A DNA stretch of 64,000 bases from Parcubacteria group bacterium Gr01-1014_8 (lineage in GTDB: Bacteria > Patescibacteriota > Minisyncoccia > Phycocordibacterales > UBA2100), in assembly GCA_007376385.1 (NCBI GenBank), contig VMGC01000001.1, positions 192,001 to 256,000 of the forward strand, given 5' to 3'. Below the pieces are notes generated by a model that saw only the letters and a program-made list of their open reading frames with translations, had not been told where the DNA came from and ran no database searches. Of the stretch, positions 10,133 through 50,480 are shown piece after piece; positions within the stretch are counted from its first letter, which is position 1; each line of letters starts with the position of its first letter. The translations under genes were made by a program, and so were the position numbers.

Positions 10133-11110
10133 CGTGCCAAATACGATAGTCCTTTGACAACTGAAGAACGACACAATTCTTGCTCGTAAGAGCAGGAGAA
10201 AAAGAAAGAATAAGAAATTTTCTGAAAAGAAAATTTCTTTTCGCGCCGTCGCTCGCGGATCATGAGAATAAATTCTCGCGATACCGCTCGCTCGGCGCGA
10301 TCAACAACATTGATTCGGCTATTGTCTTTGGCCGGATCAGTGCAGGAAAAAATGTATTTTTGCGCAACCACTTTTCACAACCACAAGGTTGTAGAAAAGT
10401 GCAGTCCTGTAATAGGGAAAGCAAAAATCAAAAACAATCCGCCTTCGCACACGTTGTGTGCTATGGCGGGACAAAGAAAGTCCCGACACGCCAAAAGGTG
10501 TGACGGGCGCAATGCTTGTCCGTCTTGTAGCGGACAAGCAAAGTAATAAACCAATAACGCGGTTCTCAAATTTCCAAACGGGAATTCTGAGAAAGGGCGT
10601 GCGGCGGATGCCTTGACAGAAGAAGGCGATGAAGGACGCAGTTCGGCGGCGATACGCTTCGGGGAGGTGCCAAGCAACCTTCGATCCGGAGATTTCCGAA
10701 TGGGGAAACCCCATAGAGCAACCCTCTATGACTCATGCTCTAAACAGCATAGAGAGCAGACCTTGGGAAGTGAAACATCTCAGTACCAAGAGGAAAAGAG
10801 ACCAATAGGTATTCCCTTAGTAGCGGCGAGCGAAACGGGAAAAGCACAAACTCAGCCACAAAATCGAAGCGCGATTTATTTCGCGAATCGATTTTGGGGA
10901 TGGGGGTTATAAGGCTACAGCGCTAGCAATAGGTAGAGTAAAAAAATGCTTAGTTAGAGGAAGCGCCTGGGAAGGCGCGCAACACAGGGTAATAGCCCCG
11001 TACTCGAAAACGAAGCATCTCTATGGCTGTAGTTCTTGAGTAACTCGAGACATGAATAGCTCGGGTGAATTTGCCGGGACTAACCGGTAATGCTACATAC
11101 TTCTTCTGAT

Positions 11111-11153
<43 letters not shown>

Positions 11154-12660
11154 GGTGAGGGGAGTGAAATAGACCTGAAACCGCATGCCTACAAGGAGTC
11201 GGAGCGGGCACCACAGTGCTCTTGAAATTTTTTGCAGAATTTTTGCAAAAGATCTTTTCGGGTGCAGTGTGGTGTCCGTCACGGCGTGCCTATTGAAGAA
11301 TGAGCCAACGAGTTAATGCATACAGCTGGCTAAGCCCTTTTCGGGTGGAGCCGTAGCGAAAGCGAGTGTGAATAGCGCGACTATAGTTGTATGTATTAGA
11401 CCCGAAGCCAGGTGAGCTACCCATGAGCAGGCTGAAGTTTATAGAAATATAGATGGAGGGCCGAACCCGTAGATTGTGCAACATCTTGGGATGACTTGTG
11501 GGTTGGAGTGAAAAGCTTATCGAACCTGGTAATAGCTGGTTCTCTCCGAAAGAGCTTTCGGGCTCGCGTCATGGATTACATATGGGGGTAGAGCACTGGA
11601 AGAAGCGGATAGGCCGAAAGGCCACTGCCTCTATCAAACTCCGAATACCATATGCGTACCGTGGCAGTTAGACGATGGGGGCGAAGCTCCATTCGTCAAA
11701 AGGGAAACAGCCCAGACCGCCAGTTAAGGTCCCTAAATCTATGCTCAGTGCATTTCCAAGGAGGTGAAATTTCACAGACAGTGAGGATGTTGGCTTAGAA
11801 GCAGCCACCATTCAAAGAAAGCGTAACAGCTCACTCACTCAGAGATTTCGCGCCACAAATGATCGGGGCTTAAGCATAGTACCGAAACTGCGGATTCAGT
11901 ACGTCTTCGGATGTACTGTCTGGTAGGAGAGCGTTCTCTGTGCGATGAAGGTAAAGGGGTGACCCATGCTGGAGCGCAGGGAAGTGAAAATGTTGGCACG
12001 AGTAACCGCAAGGCAGGTGAGATTCCTGCCCGCCGAAAGAACAAGGTTTCCTTCGCAATGGAGATCAACGAAGGGTTAGTCGGTCCTAAGCCAATGGCGA
12101 ATGCCGCAGGCGATGGATTCATGGTTAATATTCCATGACTCGGAATTGGTGCGATGGAGTGACGGAGTGTTGTACCTCAAGCATATTATGGATTTATGTT
12201 CAGGCCGTGAGGATGCTTTTCAGGAAAATCCGGAGAGCACAGTCCAAGCGGAGTGGAAAAGTGGAGGCCTCGGCCGAAACTGATTTGAGGGAGCACGCTT
12301 CCAAGAAAAACTTCTAAGCTTATAACCAATGACGAACCGTACCGCAAACCGACACAGGTGTTCTGGTCGAATAGACTAAGGCGAACGGGTGAGAGATGCT
12401 CAAGGAACTCGGCAAAAAAGTGGCCGTACGTTAGCAATAAGGCCTGCCCAATACAGTGATGTATGGGGCCGCAGATAATTATTCCCAGGCGACTGTTTAC
12501 CAAAAACACAGCTCCCTGCAAACTCGTAAGAGGAAGTATAGGGGGTGATGCCTGACCAATGCCGGAAGGTCAAGTGTGGTCGGTCTCATATAGCAATATA
12601 TGTTGCTGGCACTACATAAGCCCCGGTCAATGTCGGCGATAACTATAATCGTCCTAAGGT

Positions 12661-13360
12661 TTCCCGCTTAAGAAATTGAGCGGGGAAGGACTGGGACGAT
12701 CATAGAATCGAATAAACAGCGAAAGAAAATACCAAAGCTGCCTCTCTGTGCAGTAATGCACAAGTGGTCCTAGAAACATGGCTATATGCTGGAAACCCTA
12801 TGGTATAATTATTCCATAGATGAGTAATCAGCAGGAAAGGCCAGAGATGAAAGGGTGGATCGTCGGTTTTACCGACGGCGAAGGATGCTTTTCAATAAGC
12901 ATGTTTCGCAACAAAACCACCAAGTTTGGTTGGCAAGTATTCCCAGAGTTTGTAATAACTCAGGGAAAGAAAAGTTTGCCAGCACTCGAAACTTTCCAAA
13001 ACTTCTTTAAGTGCGGAAAGATATACGAGAACGCTAGGTACGATAATCATCGTGAATATCTGTATCGATACTGTGTACGATCAATTTCGGATTTGCGGGA
13101 GAAAATAATCCCGTTTTTTCGAAAAAACAAATTGTATACAGCCAAACAAAAAGATTTCGAACTGTTTGCAGATGTCATAGAAAAGGTGTATCGAAAAGAA
13201 CATCTTTTAGAATCGGGATTGCGAGCGATAGCGCGCAAGATCGAACAGATGAATCGCAAGAAGAAATCAACATTTCTGGAATCCTCAGAGACTACACGCC
13301 ATGCCCCTAAATCTAAATAAGATCGGGTGAAGATATAGTCCAAAGGTAATAGGAACCTAG
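12661..13360 (+). mobile_element. group I-type intron in 23S at E. coli L1917-equivalent site, carrying a LAGLIDADG homing endonuclease gene
   Basis: Inserted between GGTCCTAAGGT and AGCGAAATTCCT. Contains ORF 12820..13320. Confidence 0.7.
12820..13320 (+). CDS. LAGLIDADG homing endonuclease (intron-encoded)
   Basis: 166 aa; motif GWIVGFTDGEGCFSI near N-terminus. Confidence 0.85.
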   Translation: MSNQQERPEMKGWIVGFTDGEGCFSISMFRNKTTKFGWQVFPEFVITQGKKSLPALETFQNFFKCGKIYENARYDNHREYLYRYCVRSISDLREKIIPFFRKNKLYTAKQKDFELFADVIEKVYRKEHLLESGLRAIARKIEQMNRKKKSTFLESSETTRHAPKSK

Positions 13361-13372
13361 AGCGAAATTCCT

Positions 13373-14142
13373 AGAAGACTGGGACTATCAGTCAAAAACT
13401 ACTGATAGCAAATTCTGCTATATGCTGGAAACTCCGAGTATCCAACAGTACCCTGACGAAATGGAAGGGTAAAAATCTGTTGGTGCGGACAATCAGCAGG
13501 GAAGTCGTAATTGACCCCTCAACGACTACACGCAGAACTCCACGAAGCTCATCAATCCGATGCTGTTTCGGGAGGTGATATAGTCTGAACTGCATGGCGA
13601 CATGCAGAGTTTGGCTCGCGCCAAACCGCTTCAAACAAATTGAAGTCATTATTCTCACTAGAGAATAGTAAGTAACAGAATGTGTCTGGTAACTGGATTG
13701 CCAGTTAGTACAGCGATGTACTACAAAAGATCCGCCTGTCAGCAATGACGGTAGTAATTCGGCTTATAACGGTGGAATCCTACTCGGAGCACTTTAGACG
13801 AGGTGCGTTGATGAAAGGATAATACCGTGGGAAGTCTTGTGAGTTTCGTGGAGGGCAACCTCCGTGCGAGAGCGCCTCGCCCGGTTGAGGGCGGTCGGTC
13901 GGCATTGGTGCTGACTGTCTGATCTGGAGCCTCTGTCCAGGCTCTCGCATCAATCTTCTCATCATGGTGATGGGAACTTCCACGAAACTCGCAATGACCC
14001 CGTAACGACTTAGCGCGAAAGCGCTGGAAGTGTCTCAAAAACACTTAACACGCCGACTCTGCAATGCGCAGAAGAAGATATAGTCTAATGCCCGAAGTAA
14101 TTCGGGGAGAGTGTCATATTGCGCGAAATATGACGATCAAAC
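13373..14142 (+). mobile_element. second intron-like insertion in 23S (L1931-equivalent), no intact ORF
   Basis: A 12-nt exon AGCGAAATTCCT separates it from intron 1; exon resumes near TGAAGTTCAGACGCGCACGAATGG. Only short or antisense ORFs inside. Boundaries approximate. Confidence 0.45.
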
Positions 14143-14700
14143 TCAAATGAAGTTCAGACGCGCACGAATGGTATAACGACTTGGGAACTGTCTCGAGCAT
14201 TTGCCCGGTGAAAATACAAGGGCGGTGAAGATGCCGCCTTCCTGCAGCTAGACGAAAAGACCCCAGAAGCTTTACTGTAATTTGGTATTGAGGATACGAT
14301 TTTTCCGCGTAGCGTAAGTGGGAGGCTTTGAAGCAAGGATCTCGGTTCTTGTGGAGCCGTCAATGCAACACCACTCCTAAAAATTGTATTTTCTAACTTC
14401 CATAGCAAAACTGTGGAAAGACAGTACCTGATGGACAGTTTCGGTGGGGCGCTGTCCTCCTAAAAAGTAACGGAGGAGCCTATTAAGGTCACCTAGGTGC
14501 GAATGGAAACCGTACCGGTAGTGCAATGGCAAAAGGTGGCTTGACTGCGAGTCGTACGTGACAAGCAGGCGCGAAAGCGGAGCATAATGAACCGATGGTT
14601 CGCATTAGATGCGACCAAAGATTAACGGATAAAAGTTACTCTGGGGATAACAGGCTGGTTTCGCCTAAGAGTCCAAATCGACGGCGAAGTTCGGCACCTT

Positions 14701-15552
14701 AACAAATCGGGGTGCGACGTAAGCAATTACGTAGCTTGGCTCACACATGAGACCAAGAACCAACATGTGTGCAGTTCAAATCGTGGCTTATAACGGTGAA
14801 CTCCATGGTATTATAGAACAATCGTTCTATAGTATATGGACAATACCGTGGGAAGTTTAACTCAATTACAGCGATCAATAATTATCGGTAGTCTCTTAGG
14901 TGATGGCTACTTACGGATCGTACCGCGCAGATACAATGCGTTTCTCGAGATCAATCATTCGTATTCACAAAAAGAATATGTTGATTGGACATTCGAGATG
15001 CTCAAATCGATCTGTAGAAGCGGTCCGAAGATGCGAAACGGAAATGGTGTGCGAATTGCATACCGTTTTACGACTCGTCAAATGCCGGAAATCACCGAAT
15101 TGTTCAAAGTGTTTTATGCCAATGGCAAGAAATAAATTTCGAACAATTTAAGATTAGATCCGATAATGCTTGCTGTATGGTTCATGGATGATGGAAGTAG
15201 GTGTAGCGTTGAGAACGTGTACCTTAATACTCAGCAGTTTAATTTCGATGATCAAGAAAAATGCAGGGCAATGCTCATGCGGCTTGGTATCGAAACAACT
15301 CTCAATAAGGACAAGAAGTATTTGAGAGTGAGGATAAAAACATCCTCAATCCCAAAACTTCATAAAATTATCTCACCGCACATCATTCCATCCATGAAAT
15401 ATAAATTGGGTTATAACCCCGTAGAGACTCGCTTCTTCGGAAGCGGAGTTACTGACTCTGTAATGAGCAGTAGCTAACACGCCACCTCCTTTCAATAGAA
15501 AGGATGATGATATAGTCCGATCCTTCCAGTAATGGAAGAAAAAATGACATTG
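14701..15552 (+). mobile_element. third intron-like insertion in 23S (near L2500-equivalent, GGCACCT|CGATGTCGGCTC) with split LAGLIDADG gene
   Basis: Exon resumes at CGATGTCGGCTCATC (~15553). Contains ORFs 14836..15135 and 15166..15477. Confidence 0.7.
14836..15477 (+). pseudogene. double-motif LAGLIDADG homing endonuclease interrupted by an in-frame TAA (two ORFs: 14836..15135 and 15166..15477)
   Basis: First half carries IIGSLLGDGYL; second half carries VWFMDDGS. Spacing fits a single ~210 aa enzyme. Stop codon at 15136-15138. Confidence 0.6.
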
Positions 15553-15786
15553 CGATGTCGGCTCATCTTAGCGCGGGGCTGGAGAAGGTCCCAAGCGTAT
15601 GGCTGTTCGCCATTTAAAAAGGTACGTGAGCTGGGTTCAAACCGTCGTGAGACAGGTTGGTCTTAATCTGCTGTAGGCGTTGATTCTTGAGGAGACTCAT
15701 TTTTAGTACGAGAGGACCGAAATGAACTGACCTCTGGTCTGGGGGCTGTAGTACCAACTGCATCGCCCCGTAGCTATGTCGGGATT

Positions 15787-15819
<33 letters not shown>

Positions 15820-16004
15820 GACTCCAAGATTAGGAATCGTTATAGACTCGTGGGAGATGACCACGTTGATAGGCACCAGGTGGAAGCGCAGTAATGCGTT
15901 GAGCCGAGGTGTACTAATTAGTCGACAGAATTCTCGAAAGGAATTTTGGGAGTCGCGATACTGGTTTATTGCGACGAGCGAGGACGAAGCGAAAATTTAT
16001 TGGC

Positions 16005-16094
16005 GACGTAGGGCGAGAGAAGCGAAAATGTACTCATTTTCATTTCCGAGCCGAGGAGCCAAAATAGGGTCGAATACCCTTTATTTTCATTTCG
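16005..16094. repeat. ~92 nt dispersed repeat, copy A (between 23S and 5S)
   Basis: ttattggcgacgtagggcgagagaagcgaaaatgtactcattttcatttccgagccgaggagcc...ctttattttcat; ~88% identical to 29877..29970. Confidence 0.8.
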
Positions 16095-16260
16095 TCCGAG
16101 CGAAGGCGCAACAAAGGGTTACTACCCTTTATTGCGAAGTAACAAAACGCATTCTTTCTTTCTGTGGTTCGCCGAAGCTCGCACAAGCGAGCGTAGGAGA
16201 CTGCATTGTGTCGTTCTTCGGTTGCCGAAGGCAAAGTTCATTGCAATTGAAGTTTTTGTT

Positions 16261-16363
16261 CTGGTGATTTATCGCTGGGGTCACACCTGTTCTCATTCCG
16301 AACACAGTAGTTAAGCCCAGTTGAGGCGATGGTAGTCGCAAGGCGAGAGTAGCTAGTCGCCAG
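16261..16363 (+). rRNA. rrf: 5S ribosomal RNA
   Basis: ctggtg...CCGAACACAGTAGTTAAGCCC...GAGAGTAGCTAGTCGCCAG with terminal helix pairing. Confidence 0.85.
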
Positions 16364-16379
16364 AACAAAGATTTCAAAG

Positions 16380-47671: not shown

Positions 47672-48340
47672 AGAAGGCTTGAACTTTGACAACTGAATAT
47701 GAAAAATTGTACGCAAAACCAAAAAAGAAATTGGTAAGTAAAATTGTTGCCGGCGCTCGCTCGGAATTGAAAATTTATTTTCATTTCGCTCGCTCGCATG
47801 GGCAATAAGAATTCTTGTTGTTCTCAAGTTAGGAACAATAAGACACACACAAAAGCAAGAAAACAGAAAATACATATTGAGGTTCCAGGAGGATCTCATG
47901 TGTAAGTAAACAGTAATAACGAGACAAAAGATCCCCCAAGGGGACTGCGACTTTCTACGATTCAAATGAATCGTGAAAGTCGGGAGATATACATTCTTTT
48001 GTTTCGTCCATCCTAGAGATATTGAAGCAATTCAAATTCTTGAAAGTGGTGTAAAAACCATTTTTACTTAGAGTTTGATCCTAGCTCAGGGTGAATGCTG
48101 GCGGTATGGATAAGGCATGCAAGTCGAATGGGTTAGACCCATGGCAGACGAGGTAGTAACAGGTAGGTACGTCCCCGGAAGTCGGGCATAACCAGCCGAA
48201 AGGTTGGATAATTCCCGATGGTCTCGCAAGAGTAAAGATTTATCGCTTCCGGAGCGGCCTGCTTTGTATCAGCTTGTTGGTGAGGTAACGGCTCACCAAG
48301 GCTATGACGCATAGGGGACCTGAGAGGGTGACCCCCACCG

Positions 48341-48377
<37 letters not shown>

Positions 48378-48891
48378 TGCAGCCGAGAATATTCGACAAT
48401 GGGCGAAAGCCTGATCGAGCGATACCGCGTGGTGGATGAAGCGCTTCGGCGCGTAAACACCTTTTATGAGGGAAGAAATTTTGACGGTACCTCATGAATA
48501 AGGGGCTCCTAACTCTGTGCCAGCAGGAGCGGTAATACAGAGGCCCCAAGCATTACCCGGAATTACTGGGCGTAAAGGGTGCGTAGGTGGTCATATTAGT
48601 CGCCTGTTAAAACCCACGGCTCAACTGTGGAACCGCGGGCGAAACGGTATGACTAGAGAGAGTGAGAGGTGAATGGAACTCATGGTGTAGGGGTGAAATC
48701 CGTTGATATCATGGGGAACACCGAAAGCGAAGGCAATTCACTGGCACTTTTCTGACACTCAAGCACGAAAGCGTGGGTAGCGAACGGGATTAGATACCCC
48801 GGTAGTCCACGCCCTAAACGATGATCGCTGGATTTGGGGAGTATCGACCCTCTCCGAGTCGAAGCTAACGCGTTAAGCGATCCGCCTGGGT

Positions 48892-48923
<32 letters not shown>

Positions 48924-49386
48924 AGACGGGGGCTTGCACAAGTGGTGGAGCGTGTGGCTCAATTCGTCGCTAAGCGAAGAACCTTACCAGGGCTAGAAAT
49001 CCAGCTGCATACTTTGGGAAACCTTAGTAGCCTTCGAGGGTGCTGGACAGGTGATGCATGGCTGTCGTCAGTTCGTGGTTTGAATCGTTCCCTTCAGTGG
49101 GGTAACGAACGCAACCCTCGTTGCCTGTTATATTTGTCAGGCGAGACTGCCCCCTCACGGGGGAGGAAGGTGAGGATGACGCCAAGTCAGCATGTCCCTC
49201 TGATGTCCTGGGCTGCACACGCGCTACAATCGCCGTTACAACGAGGCGCAACGTCGTAAGACCGAGCAAATCTTTCAAAAGCGGCGCCAGTTCGGATTGA
49301 GGTCTGCAACCCGACCTCATGAAGCCGGAATCACTAGTAATCGCGGGTCAGCCACACCGCGGTGAATACGTTCTCAAGCCTTGTAC

Positions 49387-50231
49387 TCACAATAAAAGCG
49401 CACAGCAGTGTACATATCTATGCGGTTAAAATCCGCACCTCTCTTTCGTACAGAGAGCGTAGCAGAAGGATAGTTGTTATCCGCGAGGATGATAATGGAG
49501 GATCCTAATGCAAAGAGCAGCCATTTCGCACAAAAGCCGACCGACCTGTCAATGGGTGGTGAGGATAGGGAAGGTCCTAGAAAGGCAAGAAAATGGATGC
49601 CTAGAACAGATACGCACATAACCTGTGGAGATCTGACGCTGTTATCCCAAAGATGGGATATGATGAATCTGACGCAGCGTCAGAAGTCAGCTGAGTCATA
49701 GTATTTGCAGATATGCAAAAAAGGACTCACTCAAAGCAAAATCTTAGTCCAGATTATGTTGTTGGACTCGTAGATGGTGAAGGAAGCTTTACTGTCTACG
49801 TAAGAAATCCAGACATAGAGAAAAAAGTCGCTCGAAGAGTGGTTGTAGAGCCAAAATTCTACATAAAACTAATCGAACGCGACAAAGATATTCTCTATGC
49901 ACTTCGAGATTTCTTCGGATGTGGAAGTATTTACTTCCAAAAAGATAATCGTCCGAATCATCAACATTGCTATCGTTACGAGGTCTTCCGGTGGGAAGAA
50001 CTTCAAACGATAATCATTCCGTTCTTCAAGCGGCACGTTCTCAAATTCGCGTCAAAACGGCACGACTTTGAAGTGTTTTGCATGATGATGGAGCTTCTCA
50101 AAAAAGAAGCACATCGAACGGAAAAAGGACTACGAGAGTTGTTTAAGTTGAAACAACGCATGCATTGAGCTCGCGTAGTGCGGGAAATCCGCTCGCTACG
50201 TGGGAACATCAATTCTTAGATTCAAGAAGAT
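49387..50231 (+). mobile_element. intron-like insertion in 16S (after CTTGTAC, ~E. coli 1392) carrying a LAGLIDADG gene
   Basis: Interrupts the universally conserved TTGTACACACCGCCCGTC. Contains ORF 49713..50168. Confidence 0.65.
49713..50168 (+). CDS. LAGLIDADG homing endonuclease (intron-encoded)
   Basis: 151 aa; YVVGLVDGEGSFTVYV motif. Similar architecture to the 12820..13320 protein. Confidence 0.85.
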   Translation: MQKRTHSKQNLSPDYVVGLVDGEGSFTVYVRNPDIEKKVARRVVVEPKFYIKLIERDKDILYALRDFFGCGSIYFQKDNRPNHQHCYRYEVFRWEELQTIIIPFFKRHVLKFASKRHDFEVFCMMMELLKKEAHRTEKGLRELFKLKQRMH

Positions 50232-50480
50232 AATCGCCCGTCAACTCAGGGAAGCCGGGAGTGTCCGAAGCACATACTCGTTATGTACCAAGGCAAACTC
50301 GGTGACAAAGAGTAAGTCGTAACAAGGCACGGCTAGCGGAAGCTGGTCGTGGATTCATTCAAAATTGATTTCGATTTTCAGGTTCGCCTGATAATCGGAG
50401 CAGTCGATTTCTGTATCTCGATCGAGTACAGAAGAAGGTATGACATTGATCCTCAAACATGTCGGACAACTTGGAAAGAC

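Follow-up and report, generated by a model that had tools for sequence, protein, structure and literature searches.

The interrupted 16S gene

The stretch of DNA analysed here, which we call the window, is 64,000 nucleotides (nt) from Parcubacteria group bacterium Gr01-1014_8 (contig VMGC01000001.1, positions 192,001 to 256,000). Its 16S ribosomal RNA (rRNA) gene is split near the 3' end by 844 nt of foreign sequence that encode a LAGLIDADG homing endonuclease (LHE). We believe the insert is very probably a mobile, IIC-like group II intron of a LAGLIDADG-encoding lineage, sitting between positions 1399 and 1400 of the 16S molecule. All coordinates are in window numbering. Ec stands for the E. 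coli numbering of 16S and 23S, with rrsH as the 16S reference. The gene is made up as follows.

48063..49390, + strand: 16S exon 1, Ec 1-1399 (RF00177; rrsH BLAST; A921/U1396 covariation)
49386-49390, + strand: intron-binding site 1 (IBS1), CUCAC, the final 5 nt of exon 1
49391..50234, + strand: probable group II (IIC-like) intron, 844 nt (boundaries in 35 loci and the window; empty alleles; ribozyme structure)
49713..50168, + strand: single-motif LAGLIDADG_1 homing-endonuclease open reading frame (ORF), 151 amino acids (aa), ...YVVGLVDGEGSFTV... (PF00961)
50235..50360, end approximate, + strand: 16S exon 2, Ec 1400 to the 3' end, beginning CGCCCGUCA

The Rfam model of the bacterial small subunit (RF00177) places the start of the 16S rRNA at 48063 on the + strand, and the gene continues to about 50360. 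It is normal as far as ...GGTGAATACGTTCTCAAGCCTTGTACTCAC, then come the 844 foreign nt, and then it resumes with CGCCCGTCAACTC...AAGTCGTAACAAGG. In a BLAST alignment to E. coli rrsH, Ec 243-1399 corresponds to window 48268-49390. Since this alignment ends at Ec 1399 = 49390, the insert falls between Ec C1399 and C1400 and occupies 49391..50234. Written out, the junctions are ...GGTGAATACGTTCTCAAGCCTTGTAC TCAC | AATAAAAGCGC ... GATAAT | CGCCCGTCA ... AAGTCGTAACAAGG. A preliminary description of this DNA gave the insert as 49387..50231, which is correct in size and displaced by 3-4 nt, and it put the site at about Ec 1392, where the rrsH alignment gives 1399|1400.

The shift matters for the four nucleotides TCAC that follow TTGTAC. 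Position Ec 921, the helix-28 partner of Ec 1396, is A in 99 of 101 sequences with T1396; E. coli itself has T921/A1396. This covariation, together with the empty alleles, makes the T at 49387 (Ec 1396) exon, and the whole of TCAC with it. The uninterrupted sequence ...TTGTACTCACCGCCCGTCA occurs in at least 120 metagenome contigs. These intron-less alleles are exactly the predicted ligated sequence, and the window's 16S, spliced in silico, aligns with an intron-less relative in one colinear high-scoring segment pair (84% identity over 1-1439).

A genome scan produced 35 related loci from the candidate phyla radiation (CPR), 33 of them with sequences usable for structure tests. Their hosts carry names such as Nomurabacteria, Kaiserbacteria and Paceibacterota, among others. 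The junction ACTCAC|AA...T|CGCCCGTCA is identical in 35/35 of these loci and in the window. That a LAGLIDADG-bearing insert interrupts the 16S gene, as had been described from the window alone, holds across the relatives at the same site, with the uninterrupted contigs as its counterpart.

A group II ribozyme fold

Intron covariance models had been suggested as a check in the preliminary description. One group II model matches, RF01998 (group-II-D1D4-1) at 49639-49726, scoring 42.3 bits where its gathering threshold is 35; the group II models RF00029 and RF02001 give no match, nor does any group I model. We read the ribozyme as group II (IIC-like), not as the group I type that usually hosts LAGLIDADG genes. 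The alignment-based fold has six helical domains around a central wheel, with domain I (D1) closed by a long-range stem. Its parts are listed here with the evidence for each.

49391..49400, + strand: 5'-terminal linker AAUAA (49391-95), then AAGCG (49396-400) (alignment)
49401..49627, + strand: domain I, closing stem CACAG/CUGUG (49401-05 / 49623-27), 10 internal helices (RNAalifold, pair counts)
49554..49563, + strand: exon-binding loop GGGUGGUGAG, the terminal loop of D1 hairpin 49545-50/49564-69
49628..49688, + strand: domain II (D2), stem UCUGAC/GUCAGA (49632-37 / 49679-84) (helix 13; RF01998 alignment)
49689..49692, + strand: linker J2/3, AGCU, invariant (alignment)
49693..49728, + strand: domain III (D3), GAGUC AUAGUA, a hairpin, AAAGG GACUC (RF01998 match 49639-49726)
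49730..50169, + strand: domain IV (D4), basal stem CUCAA 49730-34 / UUGAG 50165-69, with the ORF in its loop (pairing kept in most loci)
50170..50204, + strand: domain V (D5), CUCGCGUAGU-GCGG-GAAAU-CCGC-(UC bulge)-GCUACGUGGG (covariation)
50205-50207, + strand: linker J5/6, AAC
50208..50231, + strand: domain VI (D6), 8-bp helix AUC-(AA bulge, 5' strand)-UUCUU / AAGAA-GAU
50232..50234, + strand: 3' tail AAU, its last U invariant and the penultimate nt A/U/C

Compensatory changes are found at 72/90 pairs in D1-D3 (RNAalifold, alignment A2) and at 12/23 pairs in D5-D6. The cells of D1-D3 are paired in 94.1% of cases, against 73.4% in column shuffles (0/500 reach the observed value) and 34-43% with slid partners. 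In D5-D6 the cells are 97.7-99.5% paired, and the covariation score is 0.456 against 0.14 when shuffled (alignment A1). Helices 1-12, in D1, are 87-100% paired, with compensatory changes at nearly all pairs, and helices 15-16 of D3 carry them as well. The D2 stem (helix 13) shows only invariant or wobble positions and encloses a variable hairpin.

D5 has a lower helix of 10 bp and an upper one of 4 bp, separated by 2 bulged nt on the 3' strand, and is capped by the pentaloop GAAAU; its cells are 99.6% paired and 6 of its pairs have compensatory changes. Six pairs separate the bulge from an invariant G.U wobble beneath it, which makes the D5 triad C-G-C. We also tried the AGC in GAGCUCG as the canonical triad and rejected it: its bases would face A.A and G.A mismatches, and it is part of the D4 stem. 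The D6 helix is 94% paired, with compensatory changes at 6/8 pairs. The D4 basal stem includes the stop codon of the ORF, and its fourth pair switches between A-U and U-A in step with TGA versus TAG/TAA stops.

What assigns the D2/J2-3/D3 segment to the IIC type is that RF01998 also matches the D2-D3 region of an RT-encoding (reverse-transcriptase-encoding) intron of mycobacteriophage Nanz197, classed as IIC-like in a published survey (PMC12350094). The D5 triad of that intron is CGC too, and the AGC of J2/3 is shared by the window, the RF01998 consensus and the phage intron. More generally the window intron is like canonical IIC introns in the sequence and fold of D2/J2-3/D3, the CGC-type triad, the small D1 and the short exon-binding site 1 (EBS1). 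The J2/3-D3 sequence of the O. iheyensis IIC intron (I1) is presumably nearly identical as well, which we take as a lead only.

Two observations on individual helices belong here. A second conserved copy of CUGACG lies inside D2 at 49669-49674 (the first is 49633-49638), just before the CGUCAG 3' strand, and an alternative hairpin could form. Pairing this copy with CGUCAG as the D2 stem leaves an uncompensated G->U in about half of the loci and was rejected; the first copy is taken as the strand because it varies only by wobble. One relative, L024 (a Lloydbacteria metagenome-assembled genome), has a 51-nt insertion in the 3' strand of the lower D5 helix (~952-1002, between ...GCTACGT and GGGAAC), and is either an inactivated copy or the host of a nested element.

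The exon-binding loop

In every locus the loop GGGUGGUGAG complements 10 nt across the joined exons, CUCAC|CGCCC. Its EBS1, GUGAG (49559-63), is complementary to the CUCAC that ends exon 1 (49386-90); the adjoining G 49558 is complementary to exon-2 nt +1, and the next four nucleotides, GGGU (49554-57), can pair with GCCC of exon 2. In L014 and L020 a C->U change at exon-2 +1 is compensated by G->A in the loop, which may be a single evolutionary event since these two loci are related. This complementarity supports the boundaries derived from the intron-less alleles. If the intron began at AAGCG, the mature rRNA would retain AAUAA; we rejected this placement because the intron-less alleles read TCAC-CGCCC and because EBS1 pairs with CUCAC.

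The LAGLIDADG protein

The ORF at 49713..50168 had been noticed from the first, and it is real: its product matches PF00961 LAGLIDADG_1 over residues 17-125 (E 5.5e-15, motif VVGLVDGEG). It has 1620 homologues, many of them 70-91% identical, from Paceibacteria-type CPR bacteria, and the ORF is intact in 31/33 loci. The protein matches each half of the monomeric enzymes I-OnuI, I-PanMI and I-SmaMI (best E 1.4e-30). Because it has a single LAGLIDADG domain, it is predicted to act as a homodimer.

The two exceptions, L015 and L029, have disrupted endonuclease ORFs (111 aa, and 43 aa before a stop) and intact ribozyme parts, a state that is typical of decay within the homing cycle. The start codon also varies. 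In the window ATG 49713 lies inside the D3 hairpin 49704-49719, and in the closest relatives the ATG is likewise within D3, either in this hairpin or in the internal loop AUAGUAUGG. Most other relatives start at an ATG after ...GGACTCACTCAATG, 3' of D3, where the window has AAG. The start codon has shifted position, and ORF and ribozyme structure overlap.

The same genome has a LAGLIDADG gene in its 23S rRNA (12820..13320), and the preliminary description suggested that one homing endonuclease gene family has colonised several sites in rRNA genes. Compared directly, the 16S and 23S proteins are homologous (32% identity, E 5e-20) and both are single-domain PF00961 proteins. The LAGLIDADG gene of the 23S lies in an insertion after Ec 1931, not at 1917 as had been supposed. 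The broader suggestion fits the published occurrence of LAGLIDADG_1 at 16S position 1400 and at 23S positions 1917, 1931, 1952, 2593 and other sites in CPR genomes (PMC11270868).

Relationship to published introns

The element is one more member of a published kind, catalogued both in CPR bacteria and among the giant sulfur bacteria. Tsurumaki et al. 2024 (J Bacteriol) found CPR insertions resembling group II introns only at 16S position 1400, and named them '16IS9'. Of these, 39/53 encode a LAGLIDADG LHE and none encodes an RT, from which the authors infer DNA-based homing; insertions of this type were first seen by Brown et al. 2015, and CPR rRNA insertions in general are removed from transcripts, for which Brown 2015 is cited (PMC11270868). 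The window agrees in its CPR host, its 16S site near 1400, the Rfam group II match, the single-domain LAGLIDADG_1 protein and the lack of an RT, and is one more instance. The accessible part of the 16IS9 account gives no secondary structure, exact 1399|1400 splice junction or EBS-IBS pairing.

The other relevant body of work is that of Liu et al. 2026 (Genome Biology and Evolution) on the 'rns-1396' or S1396 IIC-LHE family, known from Thiomargarita and relatives and from a few CPR (PMC13190283), and first described by Salman et al. 2012 (PNAS) in Thiomargarita (PMC13190283). Introns of this family are built on a IIC backbone and lack EBS2; D4 holds a single-motif LHE, and every member carries a 5' terminal linker. 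The family's sites are UUGUACA|CACCGC (after 1396) and its EBS1 is ..GUGUAC.. (PMC13190283, Table S4). The window intron likewise has a IIC-type core, a single-motif LHE in D4 and no EBS2 that we could find. The Thiomargarita seed FR690945, which starts AAAUAAAUGCGCCUGGCAG, aligns with the window ribozyme at 49% identity and shares with it the 5' linker, the D1 stem, the J2/3-D3 motifs and an EBS1 in the same D1 hairpin loop. The linker is AAAUAAA-UGCG in rns-1396 (AAAUAAAUGCG in FR690945) against AAUAA-AAGCG in the window, and the J2/3-D3 motif GAAGUCAGC.GA.UC.UAGUA is common to both.

The differences lie at the target. Unlike rns-1396, the window intron and its 35 relatives are inserted 3 nt further downstream, at UACUCAC|CGCCCG (after 1399), in hosts with U1396. 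The window EBS1 is GUGAG, and the complementarity of its loop extends 5 nt into exon 2. Our own reading of these sequences is that the two belong to one ribozyme-plus-LHE lineage, the EBS1 of the window intron differing in step with its site. A bolder reading, which we are as ready to doubt as to accept, is that the CPR lineage would be a Thiomargarita-type IIC-LHE intron naturally retargeted 3 nt downstream by rewriting of the EBS1 loop. The loop would then be a continuous 10-nt guide across both exons, like the internal guide sequence of group I introns or the delta-delta' interaction of IIA introns and unlike IIC. As D5 and D6 escape RF00029, introns of this kind would also be widespread in Patescibacteria, contrary to a 2026 survey that found none.

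That survey, using RF00029 only, reported no group II introns in Patescibacteria (PMC13011429). The failure of RF00029 on the window intron explains the discrepancy: the family is a false negative of an RF00029-only search. With blastn against 72,556 plasmids, the ribozyme without its ORF gave only D5-like matches of ~34 nt at E>=1 and no annotated relatives.

Zimmerly & Semper 2015 (PMC4424553) describe group II introns in fungal rRNA genes whose splice site is 1-33 nt upstream of GUGYG and in which EBS2 and the branch site have been lost. LAGLIDADG-encoding group II introns with 5'-terminal insertions in the rRNA genes of fungal mitochondria were described by Toor & Zimmerly 2002, Mullineux et al. 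2010 and Li et al. 2011 (reviewed in PMC4424553). The window intron is like the mitochondrial ones in its rRNA host, an LHE in place of an RT, a splice site upstream of the GUGYG position, the lack of EBS2 and of a branch adenosine, and an I-OnuI-related protein. The fungal introns differ in being IIB1, mostly with double-motif monomeric LHEs, and in organelles, whereas the window intron is IIC-like, has a single-motif LHE and lies in a bacterial chromosome. Canonical IIC introns encode an RT and are inserted behind terminator hairpins; they begin with GUGYG, and RF00029 and RF02001 detect them. None of this applies to the window intron. In the literature compared we found no description of the exact 1399|1400 junction, of a retargeted loop that spans the junction, or of a six-domain model backed by covariation.

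How the intron may splice and spread

The preliminary description held that an intron at this place must be removed from the decoding-centre strand, and the conserved, covariation-supported ribozyme fold and the intron-less alleles agree with it. We infer self-splicing, with indirect support from the published transcript data on CPR insertions in general (PMC11270868, citing Brown 2015): after transcription the ribozyme would excise itself and ligate the exons to ...UUGUACUCAC-CGCCCGUCA..., and this ligation would let helix 28/44 and the decoding centre form. The first step would most likely be hydrolysis, giving a linear intron, and not lariat formation, because the intron has a 5-nt linker, a degenerate GUGYG (AAGCG) and a D6 with no bulged A. 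Hydrolysis has also been put forward for other group II introns of rRNA genes that carry 5'-terminal insertions, and canonical IIC introns splice hydrolytically in vitro (PMC4748821).

Mobility would come from homing driven by the endonuclease. The predicted homodimer would cut intron-less 16S genes around TTGTACTCAC|CGCCCGTCAA (candidate target DNA TTGTACTCACCGCCCGTCAA, GCCTTGTACTCACCGCCCGTCAACTCA), and the intron would be copied in by repair of the double-strand break. This would be DNA homing, not retrohoming, and would need no reverse transcriptase.

Points against a group II intron and alternative explanations

Several features weigh against our assignment. The boundary rule GUGYG...AY is not obeyed, as the intron starts AAUAA-AAGCG and ends (A/U/C)U. 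AAGCG does sit in the place of canonical GUGYG, directly 5' of the D1 stem, with AAUAA as 5 extra nt before it, and 5'-terminal insertions are a known class of exception to this boundary (PMC4424553, PMC13190283). There is no candidate branch-point A: the 3' strand of D6 is continuously paired with no bulged adenosine, and the AA bulge is on the 5' strand only. The third base of the D5 triad is U in 5/32 relatives, and the D5 loop is a pentaloop rather than GNRA. No loop was found that could serve as EBS2 by complementarity to the exon upstream of IBS1; the EBS2-like matches were rejected, since the helix strands that contain them covary on their own while the exon stays invariant. The general group II model RF00029 (D5-D6) finds no match in the intron even at E<=10, nor does RF02001 match it. 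Finally, the literature itself is divided on the class, with IIB1 in PMC4424553 and IIC in PMC13190283.

These same irregularities, that is the non-canonical 5' end, the missing branch A, the pentaloop, the variable third triad base and the silence of RF00029, are what one would expect to cite for the alternative that survives best, which we nevertheless consider unlikely. Here the insert would be a degenerate group II relic, unable to self-splice, and its removal would require the help of a protein, be it the LAGLIDADG protein in the role of maturase or a factor of the host. L024 tolerates its 51-nt insertion in D5, and maturases are known among the LAGLIDADG proteins encoded by group I introns (PMC4424553). 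Against this, all helices from D1 to D6 are under strong purifying selection across 33 lineages, 14/53 of the published CPR examples have no ORF (PMC11270868), and the LHE of a Leptographium group II intron gave no help to splicing (PMC4424553).

It is far less probable that RNase III or other nucleases of the host excise the insert as an intervening sequence and the exons stay unligated, with the 16S in pieces of ~1.4 kb and, at the 3' end, ~125 nt. Bacterial rRNA intervening sequences excised without ligation do exist and are discussed for CPR (PMC11270868), and the site between helix 28 and helix 44 can be counted in favour. A conserved group II fold and a loop that matches both exons would, however, be pointless in an RNase III substrate, the intron ends lack the long terminal stem typical of intervening sequences, and an unligated cut would sever the decoding-centre strand 1397-1405.

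A group I intron of a subtype that Rfam misses can practically be dismissed: group I introns are the usual hosts of LAGLIDADG genes, those in this genome's 23S adjoin a group I core, and more than half of the insertions in CPR rRNA genes resemble group I introns (PMC11270868), but the insert has no RF00028 match even at E<=10, exon 1 ends in C and not U, and the intron ends in U and not G. What covariation supports is a fold with a central wheel, the hairpin of D5 and a loop for EBS1, rather than P3-P9.

Significance

We believe the group II intron reading has practical consequences. In this genome and its relatives the 16S gene exceeds the mature rRNA by 844 nt, and the break falls within the 1391/1392 universal primer site. 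Gene callers cut the 16S short (the Rfam small-subunit match ends at 49422), and surveys by polymerase chain reaction will miss the gene or mis-size it. Searching with RF00029 only yields none in Patescibacteria (PMC13011429), though group II introns appear frequent there. The locus and its 35 relatives also provide a clean, covariation-rich alignment of an RT-free group II intron, one with a 5' linker, no branch A and an exon-binding loop re-aimed by 3 nt. The established picture, that CPR rRNA genes are rich in introns bearing homing endonucleases, is unchanged.

Other rRNA features of the window

The 23S gene lies at 10579-15938 and together with 5S spans 10579-16365, on the same strand as the 16S (48063-50360). 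The 16S is unlinked, since the 23S and 5S are ~32 kb upstream. The 23S carries at least 3 insertions, within 12661-14149 and 14700-15552. Insertion 1 follows Ec 1931 (12661-13360) and contains the LAGLIDADG_1 ORF 12820-13320 compared above. A 12-nt 23S mini-exon, AGCGAAATTCCT at 13361, separates it from insertion 2, which extends to 14149 and has an Rfam group I match at 13363-13607. Insertion 3 is 853 nt between Ec 2500 and 2501, with two adjacent LAGLIDADG-like ORFs at 14836-15135 and 15166-15477, apparently parts of a single gene that a frameshift or stop has broken up.

The 3' end of the 16S (window 50351-50365) reads GGATTCATTCAAAA in place of GGATCACCTCCTTA, and so the anti-Shine-Dalgarno CCUCC is absent. 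Most relatives have lost it as well (L002-L035, L056, L075 and others), while L014, L020 and L028 keep GGATCACCTCCTTTCT. The sequences suggest a lineage-specific loss of initiation that depends on the Shine-Dalgarno interaction.

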